A stretch of 64,000 nt of DNA from positions 178,374,001 to 178,438,000 of the forward strand of contig OZ024741.1 in NCBI GenBank assembly GCA_964016885.1, given 5' to 3'. Under the pieces are notes generated by a model that searched no databases, was not told the origin of the DNA, and worked only from the letters and a program-made list of their open reading frames with translations. Shown here in pieces: positions 2,113 through 63,293 of this stretch. The position numbers and the translations under genes were made by a program. The first letter of the stretch is position 1. Each line of letters starts with the position of its first letter. Origin of the DNA: Eledone cirrhosa (Eukaryota).

Positions 2113-3478
2113 GTGACTAGTATGTGTTTATATGTGTTTGTTGTTATTGTGCTTGTGTATGTATTTATTTATTTATTTATCTATTTATTTATTTATACTT
2201 CTCTTAGGTCAGTGTTGTTTGTTTGGGTGTTGTTATTCCATTCATTCTTTCTGTTTAGTCCTGGCCTTCTAAGTTCTATTTCACTGGCCTCTCTGATTTG
2301 CCTATCTGCTGGGTCATTTCTATGTTTAGATATTATTCTAATTTCTATGTTGTCTATGTTACCGTCGTGTTAATGCCTGGCATGTTTGTATAGTACTGAC
2401 CCGTTTTTTCGTCCTTTTAGTTCCCCCCAGTGTTGGTCTATCCTTTCACCTATGCTACGAGCTGTCTCGCCTATGTATGTTGTTGTCATGTTTCTGCAAG
2501 TACCCTCTGTACATCTTATGCTATAGACTACGTTTCTAGTTTTACAGTTTATCCGGGGGTTTACCTTACATATGATGCATTTCCTATTAGTACAGTGGGT
2601 TTTCTTAAAAGGGTAGGTTTTGCTGATCAGGGAGTTTATGGTGGTTCCTGGCTTTCCTACCACCTTAATCTTTAAGTTGGTCTTTCTCAGGGCCTTTCTA
2701 CACTGGTTAGCTAATTTCCCTCCAGGGGTAGCGTCCACAAACATGACACTCTGGTATCTCTGGTTGTCGTACCATGAGGTGGCTTTCCCTATCTTATGTC
2801 TAGCCCTATCTAAGCTATTCCATGATTTGCTCCTGTATAATGGGCAAATTCCTTTCATGCCCAGTTCTATGAGGGTCTTATACTTCTCCATGGCTCCTTC
2901 GTATACTCTGACTCTGTCTCTTTGGTTGTAGCCAGAGAACTGCATGCGGTTGATGAAGTGTTGGATGTCTTTCCTTTTCTGTTGGGTGGCACATGGGACA
3001 CATTCTTCATCACTCGTACCAAATCTGCGATCAGAATATTAAACTTAGCATTGCTGGACATTGCTGAGTTTTTGAGTATCAGGTATTTGGAGGCCATAGT
3101 GTTAATCCAGAGTTCCGTGTCTAATACAGGTAGTCTATTGTTAGGGTGTTTGGAAGGGAAGTCGATATTTACAGTTATACTCTGGTGTATGGAATTAGCT
3201 ATCTTCTGGATGCTTTCCATTGTGCTACGTTCTAAATCAAACTTGTTATGCTCTCTAGTGGGGATGTTCTTATAACTATATTGATATCGTCTACATAACG
3301 AGAGTACATGATGAGGTCTATGGAACTCTCATTAAGGAGATCTTTAAGTCTCCTTTCCCACCATACCATGAAAAGTTTGGCAACATCACCAGCTATGCTG
3401 ACGCCAATGGCTGCTCCCTCATTTTGGGTGTAGATCTTCTCGTTGAACTTAAATATGTGTTCAACGAGAAGATCTACA
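2113..3478 (-). mobile_element. 5'-truncated Penelope-like element (RT C-terminal half + GIY-YIG), pseudogenised
   Basis: YSRYVDD, LPVLD, NVVYSIRC...[16 protein letters not shown] (GIY-YIG); near-identical to 46065-47465; internal deletion/frameshift; 20-bp snap-back inversion at 5' end. Confidence 0.93.
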
Positions 3479-6022: not shown

Positions 6023-6034
<12 letters not shown>

Positions 6035-7978
6035 TATTTGGGGAGGGTCATATTTGCGTAATATTGCCAGAATTAATAACAGAACACACTCACTGTTTGG
6101 TTGGTTTTCGCCTCTCGCTGTCTTTTATATATATATATCTGCGATCTAACTTACTCGGTCCTCAATGTTGCCATTGACTGACCGGCGGTCAAAAATAATA
6201 CAGATACAATATAGACAAACACATATATATATAGTTTACATAAATCTTTCGTTGCACATCTGCAACATCGTCAGTGGTGTTATATTCATTGTTCCTCCTG
6301 TTGTGTTGTATGTCTACGCCATTTTTTTTGTTCAGTCTGTCTATATATTTATTTATTTATTTGCTTGTTTGTTTATCTTATTTTATTTTGTCTTCTTTGC
6401 GCATGCGTTTGCGTGTGTGTATAGTGTTATGTGTGATGTGTGATGTGTGACTAGTGTGTATAGTGTTGTCTGCTGGGTGACTAGTGTGTGTTTATGTGCT
6501 TGTGTATGTATTTATTTATCTTATTTTATTTAATTTAATTTACTTATTTATTTATACTTCTCTTAGGTCAGTGTTGTTTGTTTGGGTGTTGTTGTTGTTC
6601 CACTCATTCTTTCTGTTTAGCTTTGGTCTTCTAATTTCTATTTCACTGGCCTCTCTGATTTGCCTATCTGCTGGGTCATTCCTATGTTTAGATATTATTC
6701 TAATTTCTATGTTGTCTATGTTACCGTCATGATGTTGTCTAGCATGTTCGTATAGTACTGACCCGTTTTTTCGTCCTTTTAGTTCCCCCCAGTGTTGGTC
6801 TATCCTTTCACCTATGCTACGAGCTGTCTCACCTATGTATGTTGTTGTCGTGTTTCTGCAAGTACCCTCTGTACATCTTATGCTATAGACTACGTTTCTA
6901 GTTTTACAGTTTATCCGGGGGTTCACCTTACATATGATGCATTTCCTATTGGTACAGTGGGTTTTAAGAAAACCCACTGTACCAATAGGAAATGTATCAT
7001 ATGTAAGGTGAACCCCCGGATAAACTGTAAAACTAGAAACGTAGTCTATAGCATAAGATGTACAGAGGGTACTTGCAGAAACACGACAACAACATACATA
7101 GGTGAGACAGCTCGTAGCATAGGTGAAAGGATAGACCAACACTGGGGGGAACTAAAAGGACGAAAAAACGGGTCAGTACTATACGAACATGCCAGGCATT
7201 AACACGACGGTAACATAGACAACATAGAAATTAGAATAATATCTAAACATAGGAATGACCCAGCAGATAGGCAAATCAGAGAGGCCAGTGAAATAGAAAT
7301 TAGAAGACCAAAGCTAAACAGAAAGAATGAGTGGAACAACAACAACACCCAAACAAACAACACTGACCTAAGAGAAGTATAAATAAATAAGTAAATTAAA
7401 TTAAATAAAATAAGATAAATAAATACATACACAAGCACATAAACACACACTAGTCACCCAGCAGACAACACTATACACACTAGTCACACATCACACATCA
7501 CACATAACACTATACACACACGCAAACGCATGCGCAAAGAAGACAAAATAAAATAAGATAAACAAACAAGCAAATAAATAAATAAATATATAGACAGACT
7601 GAACAAAAAAAATGGCGTAGACATACAACACAACAGGAGGAACAATGAATATAACACCACTGACGATGTTGCAGATGTGCAACGAAAGATTTATGTAAAC
7701 TATATATATATGTGTTTGTCTATATTGTATCTGTATTATTTTTGACCGCCGGTCAGTCAATGGCAACATTGAGGACCGAGTAAGTTAGATCGCAGATATA
7801 TATATATAAAAGACAGCGAGAGGCGAAAACCAACCAAACAGTGAGTGTGTTCTGTTATTAATTCTGGCAATATTACGCAAATATGACCCTCCCCAAATAT
7901 AACAATATCTGTTTCGACACACGATTTCATATAAAAAACCTCGCAAAACTAATTCATCGCCGCTATAAAATTATATAT
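6023..7978. mobile_element. Palindromic PLE insertion: two ~930-bp inverted arms (GIY-YIG + 3' pLTR), 3-nt loop
   Basis: ~6033-6965 is the reverse complement of 6969-~7900; loop AAG 6966-6968; right arm has ~65-nt extra tail; TATAAAATTATATAT at 6023-6037 and 7964-7978 is a candidate TSD. Confidence 0.93.
7660..7687 (+). ncRNA. Hammerhead-like core in PLE 3' repeat
   Basis: CTGACGA T GTTGCA-GATG-TGCAAC GAAA; also 6247-6274 (-), 45840-45867 (-), 51238-51264 (+), 18137-18164 (-, compensatory GTCACA/TGTGAC); stems I/III ambiguous. Confidence 0.55.
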
Positions 7979-12320: not shown

Positions 12321-12580
12321 ATATATATACCCGTCGGGGTAAACATTTTCCTACACACACATGTGTATATATATATATATATGTGTGTGTGTAGGAAAAT
12401 GTTTACCCCGACGGCAGAGCTCAATCCTTTTCGACGGCTACTTCTGTCCAGAAATAGCCGACGAAACGTTTTGAGCTCTGCCGTCGGGGTTAAACAATTT
12501 CATATTACCCACTCTACTGCCCTAAGTATCGAGTACTCTGGTACGTTATGGTCCATCTGGTTCCTTACCACAACTCCTTC

Positions 12581-12581
<1 letters not shown>
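12321..12581 (+). mobile_element. Fold-back hairpin-plus-tail element carrying the 3' half of a hammerhead
   Basis: Arms 12402-12446/12449-12494, extra inversion 12321-12362/12383-12414, tail ATTACCCACTCTAC...CAACTCCTTC shared with 24913-25052 and 27036-27230. Confidence 0.75.
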
Positions 12582-12633
<52 letters not shown>

Positions 12634-13934: not shown

Positions 13935-14318
<384 letters not shown>

Positions 14319-18694: not shown

Positions 18695-19745
18695 CTATGC
18701 TGGAACTTTATAATGACGGTCATTACTGTTGAATTCTCTAGTCTGCTGTCATTTTGATATTTATCTCACGTTGTATATCTCGGTACTAAACCCTAGATAT
18801 ATAATTTTATTTCATTTAGTTTCAATGTATATTCCTACTTGATTTAAATGTGCTTATAATTACTGCACGCAACAATTGTTTAAAGCATTTGTAATCATAC
18901 CTGATAACAATGTTGTACGCATTTAGGAACACGAAGCTGCATATATTGATGAATTAGAAACTAACATGAAACTGGTGAAATCATCATTTTCTTAAATAAT
19001 AATAATTGTAGCAACAACAACAACAACAACAACAACAAAAGCAAAAACAACAACAACAATAATAATAATAATAATGAAGATGACGAAGTGTAGGACATAG
19101 ATAAAGGAGACTCGTATAGCTACGGTGATGGTGACATTGACTAAAATCAAATTCATATAGAAAAACAAGAGGCAGAAAATTCTCACTGATAGAATCCAAT
19201 TACAAAACAATAATTGGATTAGAAGCATGCCTAAAAATAATCAGCGAAACACAATTGGAAAACATAATATACAGCTATTGACAAAGAAGGTAATATACCA
19301 GTCAATGTGGAAGCCTCTACATCATGTCTCAATCTACTAAAAAGACCAATACAACCGCATCCGACTACATTTAAAGAGAGCAGGTTATATCAGGTATTAA
19401 ATGAAAATCACCGCTAAATAGATAGCTAAACCATGTTTTAAATAGCATCCATTATCTTCTTTATCAGGCTTGACCTTGTTCTAAAACCAAATACGATGTT
19501 ATACACCTGCAGAGCGCAATTGTATTCAAAGTTTTAAAAACTAAATTTTGAATATCTCTGATACAATTAACATTTAAATGAAAAGGGAATAAATAAACTA
19601 TAACTGGGATGTAGAAAGGCGAAAGGCAGCATCTGTGATGTTTGTAAGGGTTTTCATAATGATAGTTGGATGCGACGAGGTTATACGCAGACTAGAGACA
19701 TCACTCTACCGTTCGCAATAGAGTACATTCCGATAAACACTAAAT

Positions 19746-19903
19746 AATTGTTTCTACTTTAGGCACAAGGCCAGCAATTACCCAGTGCATTACTGGTACT
19801 TTATTTTATCGACCCCGTAAGGATGAAAGGCAAACTCAACCTCGGCGGGATTTGAACTCAGATCGTAAAGGGACGTAACTATGCTGGAAAGCATGGCGTC
19901 CGA
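19746..19903 (-). mobile_element. tRNA-derived SINE (octopus OK-like)
   Basis: Reverse complement of 60215-60400 unit (GAGTTCAAATCC B box, GCCTTTCATCC...GGGGTCGATAAAATAAAGTACCAG core). Confidence 0.85.
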
Positions 19904-21369
19904 ATGGTCAATTAATGGTGTTAATGTGGGCTTACATATTAAATCTATCAACCAAAAACAGACACAATTCATCAGACCAGTCGTCTACTCAACTTCTGCT
20001 TGCTGAATTTCGCGTGGGTTGTTTCCATACTATATTACTAATCACATGATCAAGCTGCCCAGCAGTTGGATGTAAGCTCTAAACAAGGTATTTCAAAATG
20101 AACGTCTTATACATGTAGACATAGAACATTTTACACGTGGACAATATAAAACACATATTGAGAAAATCTAACTGTAGCATTGTCTGTAACCATCTTCATT
20201 GATCTAGAGGAAGATCCGAACTAGAACCATTACAACAATAACAGTTATCTACTGACAATTTGAAATTGAAGTTAAAACAAAGGTAAATACAAATAAAGGA
20301 GGGTGTACGTATGCACTCGCTCAAACAGGCAGAATTATCGACTAAGTTTAAAACAAACTACATTTAATGAAAACCAAGACGAAGAAAGGTGTAGGTTAGT
20401 AAAGCTGAAACAGATTTAACTATAAGTTTACTAAACCTTAGCTGATCTGTGGAATGACCAACAAGATCAACAATCAGAAGAAATATTGCTACTTATTATC
20501 AGTCTACGAAATTCCCAAATTACCTTTCCCAAATTAAATGTAAATGGTGGATAGATGCATACAGCATGCCCAGTGGTTATTCCCAAAATTGAGTTAATAT
20601 ACAACAGAATAGGTCAGCTGAGTATATTCTTATGTATCTTGTTAGGAGGAATTGAATTTGTTATCAACATAAAATGGAATGAATTTAATCCCTAGAAAGC
20701 TGCTGAATCAGTTTGACTAACAATGCTGTATGACCTGACAGTTCTCTTAAATAAGAATGTCTTTGCCAATAGACAAGATATAATTATAAAATATTACACA
20801 CATGAAATGTGTACTCTAACTGATATGCTATTATTCACGCACAGGAACATGTCAATCAACGAAACTGAAAAAGAAAAGAAAATCAAAATAAGAATTCTGA
20901 TATAGAAGTAGTGAGGAAATGGAACGTATAGAAATGGAACGTGTACACAACAGTTGCATCAGCCATTTTGAATCACACATATCTGTAAGCGGTGAATAAA
21001 TTAAATGTACTATAAAACTAACACCTTATTAATGCAAACACAATTTCGGAACTACAGAAAGGTGGCTCTCCAGAGAAGCATCCATATCATTATAATGAGG
21101 ATCTCTAGGATAGAAAGTAAAAAAAAAGGTAACTAAACTAAAATGATTGACAGCTATATTAAACTAAATGATGCACCCTTTCACAAAATAGCAAACCTAC
21201 CATGAATTCTGTATGCAAGGTTATATATGATGCAGAAATAATTACATAATACTATCACTTGGTACAGAGAGAAGCTTCATTGAATACATCGTAAAGAAAT
21301 AACAATAATTATAAGCCATAATATCATAATAGTAGTGATATTCATTATTATTATGAATTTTGTTTAAGT

Positions 21370-21793
21370 AGATTGGCAGTATCGGTAGAGCGTCAGACAC
21401 CATCCTATGCAGCATGGAGTTACGCCCCTTTACGTTCGGATTTCAAATCCCGCCAAGGTTAGCGTTGCCTTTCATCCTTACGTGGTCGATAAGATAAAGT
21501 TCCAGTAATACAATGGGGTAATTGCTGGCCTTGTGCCAAAAGTAGAAACAATTATTAGGAATGTTATTATTGTTATCGTTGATAATAAGATTATTATTAA
21601 TAATAACTATTTCTACGTTTGGTACAAGGCCAGAAACTACCCAGAGCATTACTGGTACTTTATTTTATCGACCCGTAAGGATGAAAGGCAAAGTTACCCT
21701 TGGCGGGATTTGAACTCAGAATGGCAAGGGCCGTAACTCTATACGTCAAAGCATAGCATCCGACCCTCTACCGATACTGCCAATCCACCGCCT
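21370..21793. mobile_element. Two SINE copies tail-to-tail (21370-21556 +, 21605-21793 -)
   Basis: Both match the 60215-60400 SINE; separated by AT-rich spacer. Confidence 0.85.
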
Positions 21794-21899
21794 ATTAATG
21801 ATAACAATAATGAATTATTAATATTATTGTTATCATCATAGTTGTTATTATTAGTATCATTATTATTCATTTACACAATATTGTTCGTATTCCATTGAA

Positions 21900-24912: not shown

Positions 24913-25052
24913 AGTCCAGAATTAGCCGTCGAAACGGCTTGAGCTCAGCTGTCAGGGTCCTACTCGTTCCTATTACCCACTCTACTACCCTAAGTATTGA
25001 GTACTTTGGTGCGTTATGGTCCACCTGGTTCCTTACCACATTTCCTTCGTTA
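24913..25052 (+). mobile_element. Single-arm copy of the half-hammerhead family
   Basis: CCAGAATTAGCCGTC GAAA CGGC TTGAGCTCA GCTG TC AGGGT plus shared tail; between TA tracts. Confidence 0.7.
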
Positions 25053-26577: not shown

Positions 26578-27035
26578 TGGGAGAGATGACCCCTTAGCCT
26601 TTGTCAAGGCAGAATTCTAGGAGAAGGAAAACTCTGATATAACACCTGCAACCCTGATGGTATCCAATGATGTTGACTTGTTCTTCTTTTTGGTAAATAT
26701 CATCTTGGTTAAGAGAGTGGGACTGGCTTTGTGCAGTGCCTTTGCTCACTATAAAAGCTTCACGGCACAGGCATTGCTTTATATCTGGAGATCTCTCTGC
26801 ACTTGTCGTCACATGGTACCATGGGCCCAGCACTATGTGTCAATGGTTGTCCTACCATGGGCCCAGCACTATGTGTCAATAATTGTCACAAGTGTAGTGT
26901 TTGTACCAGAGTTTTCAAGTCGCTGGCTGGACTAAAAAGTCACACTCGTTCAGCGCATCGGTAGGGGTTCTCCTACATGGATATAAAGTAGTGGCCGTAC
27001 TCGAAAACGAGTTGGCAGCCACCATATATATATAT

Positions 27036-27230
27036 AGGAGAAAGTATGAACCCGATGGCAGAGCTCAGGCCGATTCGATGGGTATTTCTGGACTCCAGAG
27101 ATAGCCGTCGAAATGGCTTGAGCTCTGCCGTCGGGGTCATACTTTCTCCTATCACCCACTCTACTACCTCAAGTATTGAGTACTCTGGTGCGTTATGGTC
27201 CATCTGGTTCCTTACCACAACTCCTTCGTT
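27036..27230 (+). mobile_element. Fold-back hairpin-plus-tail element (half-hammerhead family)
   Basis: Arms 27036-27092/27094-27150, tail to 27230, TA tracts both sides. Confidence 0.78.
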
Positions 27231-27254
27231 ATATATATATATATATACAGTATA

Positions 27255-45633: not shown

Positions 45634-48239
45634 TGGGGAGGGTCATATTTGTGTAATATTGCCAGAATTAATAACAGAACACACTCACTCTTTGGTTGGT
45701 TTTCGCTTTTCGCTTCTGTGTCTTTTATATCGGTAATCTAATTTATTCGGTCCTCAATGTTGCCATTGACTGACCAACGGTCAAAAATAATACAGATACA
45801 ATATAGACATAAACACATATATATAGTTTATCAAAGTTCTTTCGTTGCTCTTCTGCAACATCGTCAGTAGTGCTATTGTTTCCTCCCGTTACATTGTATG
45901 TCTACGCCATTTTTATTTAGTCTGTCTATATATTTATTTATTTATTTGTTTGTTTGTTTATTTTATTTTGTTTCTTTGCGCATGCATTTGCGTGTGTGTA
46001 TAGTGTTTTGTTTGATGTGTGTTCGTGATTGGGTGACTGTGTATCGGTTAATGTATTCTATCTTTACTAGTGTGTGTTTATATGTGTTTGTTGTTATTGT
46101 GCTTGTGTATGTATTTATTTATTTATTTATCTATTTATTTATTTATTTATACTTCTCTTAGGTCAGTGTTGTTTGTTTGGGTGTTGTTGTTATTCCATTC
46201 ATTCTTTCTGTTTAGTCTTGGCCTTCTAAGTTCTATTTCACTGGCCTCTCTGATTTGCCTATCTGCTGGGTCATTTCTCTGTTTAGATATTATTCTAATG
46301 TCTATGTTGTCTATGTTACCGTCGTGTTAATGCCTGGCATGTTCGTATAGTACTGACCCGTTTTTTCGTCCTTTTAGTTCCACCCAGTGTTGGTCTATCC
46401 TTTCACCTATGCTACGAGCTGTCTCGCCTATGTATGTTGTTGTCATGTTTCTGCAAGTACCCTCTGTACATCTTATGCTATAGACTACGTTTCTAGTTTT
46501 ACAGTTTATCCGCGGGTTTACCTTACATATGATGCATTTCCTATTAGTACAGTGGGTTTTCTTAAAAGGGTAGGTTTTGCTGATCAGGGAGTTTATGGTG
46601 GTTCCAGGCTTTCCTACCACCTTAATCTTTAAGTTGGTCTTTCTCAGGGCCTTTCTACACTGGTTAGCTAATTTCTCTCCAGGGGTAGCGTCCACAAACA
46701 TGACACTCTGGTATCTCTGGTTGTCGTACCATGAGGTGGCTTTCCCTATCTTATGTCTAGCCCTATCTAAGCTATTCCATGATTTGCTCCTGTATAATGG
46801 GCAAATTCCTTTCATGTCCAGTTCTATGAGGGTCTTATACTTCTCCATGGCTCCTTCGTATACTCTGACTCTGTCTCTTTGGTTGTAGCCACAGAACTGC
46901 ATGCGGTTGATGAAGTATTGGATGTGTCTTTCCATTTCTGTTGGGTCGCACATGCGGGACACATTCTTCATCACTCGTACCAAATCTGCGATCAGAATAT
47001 TAAACTTAGCACTACTGGATATTGGTGAGTTTTTGAGTATCAGGTATTTGGAGGCCATGGGTTTAGCATAGTGTGAGTGGAGAATTTGGGCTCTCTCGTC
47101 TATAGTGTTAATCCAGAGTTCCGTGTCTAATAAAGGTAGTCTATTGTTAGGGTGTTTGGAAGGGTAGTCGATAGTTACAGTTATACTCTGGTGTATGGAA
47201 TTAGCTATCTGCTGGATGCTTTCCATTGTGCTACGTTCTAAATCATACTTGTTAGTGCTCTCTAGTGGGGATGTTCTTATAACTATATTGATATCGTCTA
47301 CGTAACGAGAGTACATGATGAGGTCTATGGAGCTCTCATTAAGGAGATCTTTAAGTTTCCTTTCCCACCATACCATGAAAAGGTTGGCAACATCACCAGC
47401 TATGCTGACGTCAATGGCTGCTCCCTCATTTTGGGTGTAGATCTTCTCGTTGAACTTGAATATGTGGCCCTTTAGGGTAGTTTTGATACTAGCCCTATTG
47501 CATGTGCGACCATTTTTCTTACCTGATCATTGTTTTGGGGGTTCCATATAGCTTTGGTCCACCCAATCCACCTTCCCATGGGAGTCTTTTTTGCCATTGA
47601 GGTTATGGTGGGTGTCTACCTCTTATGGGTCTACTAGGGCAGAAACGTTTAATGTCATGGCTGTTTAGGTAGTCAGTGTCGTAGGTAAGTCTAAGTAGGA
47701 GGCCCAATTCGTCTGTGTCGACGTCGCAGAACTCCACCTCACTCTCAATGATCATCTCCACACATTTTTCGACAGCAAAATCAATGTTAATGGATAGGTA
47801 CAGTGCTACCACATCCATGCTGCCTATTATGCAGTTGGATAGGTTCCTGATTTTGTTGCACTCACTGATTCTGCTGAGGAGGTCCTCTGTACTGTCACAT
47901 ACATCTGGGGACATCTTGATTATGGGGCGTATAACCATTGAGAGCAAGTAGGAGATCCTGTAGTTGCTAGCTATATTAGCTCCGCATACGGGTCTTGTTG
48001 GTGGTCCTGTTGTCGGGTCGTCGACTGTCTTGTGGTCTTTGCGGAGACCATACAAGGGTGGTATGTCATTTTTAGACGCCTGGAAGTTGTTGGCAGTGCG
48101 TCTGTTTGGCTTTAGGATGTCAGTCCACATCATCATGTGAGCGTTGAGGATTTTCTCTCTCCCATCATGTGTTTGCTGTGCAATTTCGCTCGTGTTGGTG
48201 ATGTGGGGTTGCATAGCCTTGATGTAGTTCGGCATGCTA
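45634..48239 (-). mobile_element. Penelope-like element, left (inverted) arm
   Basis: PPLYGLRKDHK, GPPTRPVC, IIGSMDVVALY, YSRYVDD, LPLLD, CTNRKCIIC linker, GIY-YIG; frameshift near 47600 and TAA at 46327. Confidence 0.95.
46327..47376 (-). pseudogene. PLE RT C-terminus + GIY-YIG endonuclease (premature stop in nuclease tail)
   Basis: 349-aa ORF with YVDD and NVVYSIRC/YIGET motifs; ends HARH* where the right arm reads HARQQHDG...QIREA. Confidence 0.9.
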
Positions 48240-51660
<3,421 letters not shown>

Positions 51661-53217: not shown

Positions 53218-53656
53218 TAAAGAATTCGAAGTTTGAAAGCCGCAATAATGCAGATCGGACGGAAAATAATTAAATCGTAAGAAACGAGGGATTTTTTTTT
53301 TTTTACCTTATTGTATTCATGTGTCCTAATATTTCAAGATTAATATCTCTTCTTCCGAGGAAAATAAAGGAACAATTCCATTGTCCGATGTGGCTTGCTA
53401 TACCATTCTGGCAGGAAGTAGTTATATTATATTTTTCCCCAACCTCTTTTGTTAACCACTTCCGGCCAGCATGGTATAACAAGCCACATCAGACATTGGA
53501 ATAGTTCCTTTAATTTCCTCGGAAGGAGATATTAATCTCGATATATCAGGGCATTGAATAAATTAAGGTAAAAAAGATAGCTCGCCTCGTTTCTTACGAC
53601 GCAATTATTTTCCGTCCAATCCGCATTGTCGTGGCTTTCAAACTTCGAATTGTTTA
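53218..53656. mobile_element. Old fold-back/MITE-like element
   Basis: ~205-bp diverged inverted arms (53218-53424/53453-53656), ~28-bp spacer. Confidence 0.8.
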
Positions 53657-58094: not shown

Positions 58095-58710
58095 TTGTTT
58101 CTAAATCTGGTACAAGGCCAGTAATTTGGAGGGAGGTAAAATCTGGTCAAATCAACCTCAGAACATGGTTAGTGCTTTATTTTATCGATTGCGAAAATAT
58201 GAATGGCAATGAACTCATATCACAAATGGTCGTAACGCTTTAAAGATTGTTGTCCAAAGCTCTAACGACATTACCATACTACATAATGGCTTCTTATGTA
58301 GGCACAAGGCCAGCAATGTCGAGGGAGGGGAAATTCGATTAAATCGACCCCAGTGCGTGGCTGGTGCTTTATTCTATCGGCCCCGTATGAATGAAAGGCA
58401 AAACTAACCTCAGCCGGATTTTAACTTAGAACGTAAAGGGACGAAACTCTATGCCACAAAGCATCCGACCCTCTACCGATACTGCCAATCCACTGCTCCT
58501 CATATGTATTAGTAAGAATGGTTTCTGATTTAGGCACAAGGCGAAAATTCTGAGGGATGGGAAATTCGAAAAATCCGTCTACAGTATGTTACTGGTATTT
58601 TATTTATCGACTGCGTAAGGGTGCAATTCAAAGCTAAACGCTGTGGGATTTGAACAAAGAACATACAGGTACGTAACTCGATGCCGGAAAGCATGTTTTC
58701 CGCCGCACAT
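58095..58710 (-). mobile_element. Cluster of three degenerate SINE copies
   Basis: Three tandem reverse-complement matches (GGCACAAGGC...TTTATCGA...GAAAGGCAA...AGAAC) to the 60215 unit. Confidence 0.75.
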
Positions 58711-60013: not shown

Positions 60014-60417
60014 GCAGTGGATTGGCAGTATCGGTAGAGGTCGGTCGCCATGCTTTCCAGCATAGTTACGTCCCTTTACGATCTGAGTTCAAATCCCGCC
60101 AAGGTTGACTTTGCCTTTCATCCTTACGGGGTCGATAAAATAAAGTACCAGTAATGCACTGGGTAATTGCTGGCCTTGTGCCTAAAGTAGAAACAATTAT
60201 TTCCCAATGTTAAAGGCGGTGGATTGGCAGTATCAGTAGAGGGTCGGACGCCATGCTTTCCAGCATAGTTACGTCCCTTTACGATCTGAGTTCAAATCCC
60301 GCCGAGGTTGACTTTGCCTTTCATCCTTACGGGGTCGATAAAATAAAGTACCAGTAATGCACTGGGTAATTGCTGGCCTTGTGCCTAAAGTAGAAACAAT
60401 TATTTCCCAATGTTAAA
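60014..60417 (+). mobile_element. Tandem pair of young tRNA-derived SINEs (~203-bp unit)
   Basis: A-box-like TGGCAGTATCGG, B box GAGTTCAAATCC, conserved core; two near-identical units each ending TTCCCAATGTTAAA. Confidence 0.9.
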
Positions 60418-63039: not shown

Positions 63040-63122
63040 CTACGGGGTCGATAAAATAAAGTACCAGTTATGCACTGGGTAATTGCTGGCCTTGTGCCTA
63101 AAGTAGAAACAATTATTATTAT
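63040..63122 (+). mobile_element. 5'-truncated SINE copy
   Basis: TACGGGGTCGATAAAATAAAGTACCAG...AGTAGAAACAATTATT. Confidence 0.8.
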
Positions 63123-63293
63123 TATATATATATATATATTTAGTGAAAGAGTAAAGAATAACAAGGTCGGCTGTACAAAAAGGGCTTATTTACACTACTA
63201 ACAATTGTTTCGATAATCAGGTGATTACTTTAGACGAAACGTTGTTATCCTATATATATTTATATTTATATATGTGTGTGTGTGTGTGTGCGT

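Follow-up and report, generated by a model that had tools for sequence, protein, structure and literature searches.

The 64,000-nt stretch of the Eledone cirrhosa genome analyzed here (the window; contig OZ024741.1, G000:C2:178374001-178438000, in a host genome of 3.0 Gb) holds three copies of a ~140-nt unit, of which copies 1 and 3 are hairpins and copy 2 is a solo stub. Positions within the element are numbered from the A of a conserved ATTY^AGT, which is +1, and the features are as follows:

12331..12361, plus strand: nested inversion of copy 1, element +37 to +60 together with 8 nt of the flanking CA repeat
12362..12391, unstranded: TA tract with a TG repeat, the target microsatellite and centre of the nested inversion
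12392..12446, minus strand: inverted arm of copy 1, element +60 to +5, a pseudo-LTR copy without the tail
12446..12584, plus strand: main arm of copy 1, element +2 to +140 by sequence comparison with the parent element in locus L225; hammerhead 3′ half and 80-nt tail, ending in (TA)n
12463..12466, plus strand: GAAA of the hammerhead core in copy 1, +19 to +22, from the fold of full-length relatives
12485..12486, plus strand: site at which the complete ribozyme is predicted to cleave itself, C+41 / G+42
24913..25052, plus strand: copy 2, a solo stub covering +1 to +140 that abuts a TA tract without an extra G
27035..27094, minus strand: inverted arm of copy 3, element +60 to +1
27095..27231, plus strand: main arm of copy 3, element +4 to +140 (C27095 may instead be a cap-derived base of the inverted arm)

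Comparison within the window revealed the unit copies to be 84–88% alike pairwise (E = 1e-41 to 1e-62), with 84–86% complementarity for the inverted arms of copies 1 and 3. These alignments confirmed the three copies, two hairpins and one nested inversion reported in a preliminary description, and the GAAA, stem III, GUC and GGGGU that it listed are present where it placed them. The start that it took to be shared is a common edge genome-wide, but the window copies begin at +2, +1 and +3/+4 and not at one base; likewise, ends do cluster in stem II, but on the outer part of its 3′ strand and not in the loop. The [CT]TGAN[GA]A core was absent from the 120 nt upstream of each window copy, and a hammerhead was absent among the 150 Rfam matches listed of 188 on the window. 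Copy 1, read in this way, lacks the 5′ core and would hence be unable to cut itself.

Over 31/31 nt, the nested arm of copy 1 (12331-12361) matches the reverse complement of 12384-12414, with the TA tract between them. Nested and inverted arms share a private 1-nt deletion that is missing from the main arm, from which the inverted arm has diverged by ~16%, and nested inversions are rare (one of 83 sampled copies). Because the nested arm equals the inverted arm down to this deletion, copies flanking DNA and has few counterparts, it was probably produced later, at the DNA level, by snap-back or fold-back in the self-complementary TA tract.

By their sequence, the hairpins are stubs, that is, pseudo-LTR ends, of a 3.53-kb Penelope-like retrotransposon of the Hydra clade. 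An exact 20-mer from the 3′ part of the unit had at least 17,700 matches in the genome (control, 0), and extension of the sequence beyond its normal end point revealed tandem arrays whose units are 3,531–3,546 bp long and hold open frames of 784–786 codons. In the L225 unit (3,531 bp) the frame is intact and encodes 717 aa, counted from the ATG at +232; its motifs (YRDD at 348, IY..YIG at 592–608) point to a reverse transcriptase (RT) and, at the C terminus, a GIY-YIG nuclease in a single ORF. Its protein further contains RWR at 37 (K to R relative to RWK), DKT at 117, CNCPDRSIC at 572 (CxCX5C linker), CNLC at 670 (CxxC) and CKH at 698 (CxH); GxKF/Y is absent, and a single cysteine lies between GIY and YIG, so the nuclease core is without CCHH. 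Pfam and PDB searches with this ORF returned zero matches. General Penelope traits were also present (tandem units, an inverted 5′ copy and a tail at one end), and a TA-type tract terminated 100/100 sampled copies, indicating insertion into (TA)n. The available part of PMC8557442 defines the Hydra clade by RWK, DKT, CxCX5C, CxxC and CxH and by the lack of GxKF/Y and CCHH; on this motif match the parent belongs to the Hydra clade, as a new member of an element class and architecture already known.

Arrays of several near-identical intact 3.53-kb units occur at L225, L226 and L234 (G000:C1:437.19-437.22 Mb), at L227 and L228, and at L231, each ending at +60 on one side and at +140 on the other, and were likely active recently. 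Another Hydra-like RT lies at L121:8995-9900; since it is only 53% identical to the L225 protein (over 299 aa), several Hydra families appear to inhabit this one genome.

The complete ribozyme has its 5′ core around -50 and GAAA at +19 to +22, with cleavage predicted to follow C+41. The 5′ half missing from the stubs is found in longer copies, which bears out the earlier identification of the stubs as 3′ half-hammerheads, although the core differs from the CUGANGA predicted upstream. We counted 2,363 long copies genome-wide with an ACCCC-N5-8-GTTCGGCTATT variant flank; CUGANGA occurred in 0 of the first 100 listed, of which 18 had C3 with A8 and most others UUGANAA (hand count). A direct CUGANGA search gave 26 genome hits (control, 8), only 4 of them family copies. 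The preliminary description had held that longer copies lacking CUGANGA would speak against its reading, and literally they do lack it, yet UUGANAA is a known U3-A8 variant, described for the hammerheads of Penelope elements in the available text of PMC4209133. Of 38 distinct full motifs, 31 are U3-A8, 5 C3-A8 and 2 C3-G8 (both of the latter from the targeted CUGANGA search), with a stem III of at least 4 bp in 32; the family shows paired 3–8 positions (C-G or U-A), GAAA, UH and three stems. The hammerhead was the minimum-energy fold for L225, from the intact subfamily, lay within 0.3 kcal/mol of the minimum for L064 and was 5.8 worse for L047. At E values up to 0.5, Rfam scans of five loci with full motifs hit no hammerhead family and gave just microRNA-like hairpin noise under gathering scores, of the kind also obtained on the window. 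Judged by motif and predicted fold, the stubs represent the 3′ half of a type I hammerhead, copied by retrotransposition. In one subfamily (L067, L074, L075, L078 and L085; 18 of the first 100 long copies listed) the core has a C3-A8 mismatch, which suggests spread without an intact core.

We mapped ends in an unselected set of 100 copies, all fetched, which were the first listed among the 17,700 or more matches to the tail; the first 30 loci were left out of the end counts since their query started at the edge, and counts from lists were made by hand from the first rows, on C1-C5. Every copy ended in a TA-type tract 14–22 nt past the anchor, at ~+140, and 83 had an inverted arm. The outer end of that arm fell at +57 to +64 in 68/83 and its inner end at +1 to +7 in 50/83 (mode +1, 13 copies). 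Main arms started at -4 to +8 in 54/100 copies, with about a fifth ending at -1 to -12 and just 8/100 beyond -12, although some starts were misread where arms have internal deletions. In 9/83 copies the main arm begins past +60, so the arms do not overlap and the inverted arm is made up entirely of sequence missing from the main arm (10 before the removal of L097 as such a misreading); the inverted arm still ends at -2 to +7 in 8 of these 9 pairs, and several show microhomology of 2–5 nt. Tandem arrays in direct orientation also end at +60 (L226, L231), which marks +60 as a real copying start site. Long inverted arms (0.25–2.3 kb), by comparison, turn at many places in the element. Genome-wide, 17,166 matches had T at -1 and 9,664 another base, about half of the T class being long copies (by eye). 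Among the first 100 listed of 25,579 arms, 13 joined an inverted arm to +1 with a main arm from +7, a hairpin with a 6-nt loop and no extra G that is found across subfamilies; junctions of an inverted arm to exactly +1 with a main arm resuming at +5/+6 (7 of the first 100 listed) likewise recur across subfamilies. The shared edge is a genuine genome-wide feature.

Solo copies on a TA tract with one extra G or C before +1 carried 91 G to 9 C in the first 100 of 202 listed (85:9 after removal of local duplicates). In flanking sequence (423 kb), this context gave 216:181 (p ~2e-15), and against a looser background of 74% G the excess held at p ~2e-5. The native -1 base was T or C, not G, in 39/43 long copies aligning at AGT. 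Control positions, among the first 100 of 448 listed, had an extra G in 3 cases at +2, 1–2 at +4, 7 at +6 and 2 at +7, and +6 may be a second start. We take ATTY^AGT to resemble an initiator. An internal promoter in the pseudo-LTR is described for Penelope in the available text of PMC2377424, and that of PMC11702581 reads an extra G at full-length L1 5′ junctions as the mRNA cap. By analogy, the extra G is likely a cap signature, with +1 as the putative capped RNA start at which RT runs off. Coverage from the single RNA run (share 0.05) is limited to 87 nt that do not include +1. In two untyped runs the bin following +1 shows an 11- and a 17-fold jump in contig depth, a rise not counted as support, the figures being summed contig depths possibly from the assembly's own sample.

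A smaller peak of ends coincides with the predicted cut. Solo copies ending at +34 to +44 comprised 93 rows from 50 distinct loci, 17 of which clearly start at exactly +42 and 4 more ambiguously so, with 1 neighbouring end at +43, 3 at +44 and 6 at +40/41 (p ~1e-6 versus a flat spread; 8e-4 under a generous null). Such ends are a minor class, seen in 2/100 sampled main arms (L094, by eye, and L133), and subfamily marks were not clean enough to link core type with them. They weakly suggest the predicted 3′ product of self-cleavage, with end positions as the one trace of the cut itself; a stall at the foot of stem III could explain part of the peak. The available text of PMC11167929 reports no ends at the ribozyme cut in RNA-seq of another Penelope element. 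In the openly available literature, to which our search extended, we found no report of a cap-derived G or a cut signature at Penelope stub ends.

Taken together, we consider it probable that the hairpins are twin-primed stubs of a Hydra-clade element whose RT ran off a putative capped 5′ end inside the hammerhead. At a cut (TA)n site, RT would prime on each of the two strands and copy the start of the element RNA, one target strand priming at +140 to give the main arm with its tail and the other at +60 to give the inverted arm. The cDNA would run off the capped 5′ end at +1, the A of ATTY^AGT, and the two cDNA ends would be joined by microhomology or a short snap-back. With its start between the ribozyme halves, this RNA would be unable to cut itself; read-through RNA from an upstream unit would carry the whole ribozyme, serve as the source of long copies and, once cut, yield the +42 ends. 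Twin priming is favoured over self-copying because the inverted arm has a fixed outer end at +60 and because nine pairs do not overlap: a self-copy cannot yield non-overlapping arms, and a deletion arising afterwards would seldom leave one arm so cleanly intact. The two fixed ends also fit primers at +140 and +60, as with the two internal RT start sites, and the extension of both strands, described in vitro for another Penelope element in the available text of PMC11167929. Arms that seem to pass +1 by 1–12 nt could reflect an untemplated A, microhomology, extra starts or real stem II stalls. Other observations speak against this explanation: the +1/+7 hairpin junction without an extra G fits snap-back better than plain end joining, and copy 2, the solo copy within the window, lacks the extra G.

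The preliminary description had instead proposed that RT stalls in the stem II hairpin, here of a read-through RNA, and that the cDNA folds back and copies itself, which we regard as unlikely. Ends clustered in stem II, main-arm ends at -1 to -12, recurrent hairpin junctions with 3–6-nt loops and the self-priming proposed for Penelope palindromic junctions in the available part of PMC3846280 would all suit such a route. Stalling, however, does not add a G, yet an untemplated G precedes +1, so stalling is unsupported as the cause of the edge; moreover, the edge lies at the far, AT-rich end of the stem, past the GC-rich stems I, III and II that RT had already traversed. Long inverted arms turn anywhere in the element, and those of a second Penelope family turn inside its ORF. 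With a fixed outer end in 68/83 copies and nine pairs without overlap, self-priming is not the main route, although short snap-back is possible at some junctions. It is quite unlikely that run-off from a capped start is right but the arms were joined mainly by snap-back, one cDNA folding at +1, making a short sense strand and annealing to the other cDNA; such joining could account for the +1/+7 and +1/+5–6 junctions that recur across subfamilies (13 and 7, respectively, of the first 100 listed), one of which is seen in window copy 3, but it cannot give the nine non-overlapping pairs, several with 2–5 nt of microhomology. This is a variant of twin priming and not exclusive of it.

High copy number, similar length and a few recurring junctions might indicate a non-autonomous, MITE-like or SINE-like unit copied whole, but we find this very improbable: most junctions differ, the recurring ones bear different subfamily marks in both arms, the ends are microsatellite joins without terminal inverted repeats and transposase-type duplications, and an RT element has this sequence as its pseudo-LTR. 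The earlier term MITE-like palindromes is therefore not borne out by copies that lack transposase-type ends and vary in their junctions. We also rejected a class II MITE, given the asymmetric arms, variable centres and RT parent (a target duplication is unreadable inside (TA)n), as well as a non-LTR retrozyme, given tandem units that are 3.5 kb long and coding and stubs without a 5′ core. That the edge is a splice acceptor (TTTAG) or another processing site seems extremely doubtful; the sequence does look like a 3′ splice site, and in Drosophila virilis the hammerhead of Penelope is bordered by an intron, but the ends include AG, and a shared upstream exon or leader before +1 was not seen in the copies listed.

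Stubs of this kind share features with several known systems, compared here with the available parts of the cited reports. Hydra-1_Obim (PMC8557442) resembles the parent element in its single ORF with RT and C-terminal GIY-YIG, its DKT, CxCX5C linker, CxxC and CxH without CCHH, its (TA)n targets and its hammerhead in the pseudo-LTR, and the proteins are homologous by eye. The present element is nevertheless a different family, 3.53 kb long whereas clade members are generally <3 kb, with RWR for RWK, a U3-A8 core versus canonical cores and an 80-nt tail. Insertions of endonuclease-positive Penelope elements (PMC8557442, PMC3846280 and PMC2377424) likewise have a head-to-head inverted arm, a tail at one end, tandem arrays and palindromic junctions, for which these reports invoke self-priming or leave the mechanism open; here, in contrast, most copies are 140–200-nt stubs with a fixed inner edge, and the tail is 80 nt versus the 30–40 reported.

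Poseidon of Anolis, studied in vitro (PMC11167929), has a tail bounded by two internal RT starts, uses AT-rich targets and extends both strands, with no need for ribozyme cutting. In that work the RNA start is unmapped and RNA ends are not reported at the cut, whereas here genomic ends mark the putative cap and, weakly, the cut. Twin priming in L1 (PMC11702581) likewise yields an inverted arm from a second primer on the other target strand, with an extra G at those 5′ junctions where the copy extends to the end of the RNA; the second priming site of L1 varies and its first is the poly(A) tail, whereas both sites are fixed and near the RNA 5′ end here. Schistosoma Penelope hammerheads (PMC4209133) are also type I, with U3-A8, a long stem II, G10.1-C11.1 and a palindromic loop III, and occur mostly as single truncated copies with some opposite-strand pairs, but stem III is 4–5 bp in the present family, so a monomer can fold, and one subfamily has the C3-A8 mismatch.

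A tentative further reading, in which we place somewhat less than even confidence, is that transcription starts mid-hammerhead, so that the mRNA carries an uncuttable half ribozyme, while read-through RNA with the whole U3-A8 ribozyme is cut in the animal. If so, tens of thousands of twin-primed stubs would record both 5′ ends at base resolution and serve as a genomic map of promoter and ribozyme use in the Hydra clade, which to our knowledge has never been studied at the bench. Were the ribozyme split by the start site in this way, the mRNA's escape from self-cutting would be explained, and such a split may be what is particular here. The stubs would give exact positions for the RNA start (+1), the RT starts (+60/+140) and the ribozyme cut (+41/+42), alongside an intact ORF. 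Their value is that of a mechanistic clue, not a new system; the available literature states the formation of inverted ends and the role of the hammerhead in Penelope-like elements as open questions.

Other repeats in the window also form inverted structures. A second Penelope-like family (45634-51470, 6033-7901 and 2116-3459), Neptune-like by motif with a C-terminal GIY-YIG and a CxxC linker, has inverted arms of 2.6 kb and 933 nt that turn within the ORF. The hairpin at 14061-14217 derives from another TA-targeting family (also at L291), with ~540-bp tandem units, CTGATGA close to GAAAC, inverted arms, two alternative 3′ ends and 1,785 pattern matches, and is possibly a non-autonomous retrozyme-like element. 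In this family, native sequence continues in 92 of the first 100 matches listed, and the 5′ ends of 30 loci are spread between -4 and -530, so the fixed-edge pattern is not general. An asymmetric hairpin of ~170 nt at 53355-53522 matched nothing else in the 975 kb of DNA fetched, and a ~200-bp repeat family occurs in tandem and inverted copies at 60014-60417, 19742-19903, 21367-21798, 58349-58695 and 63041-63124.
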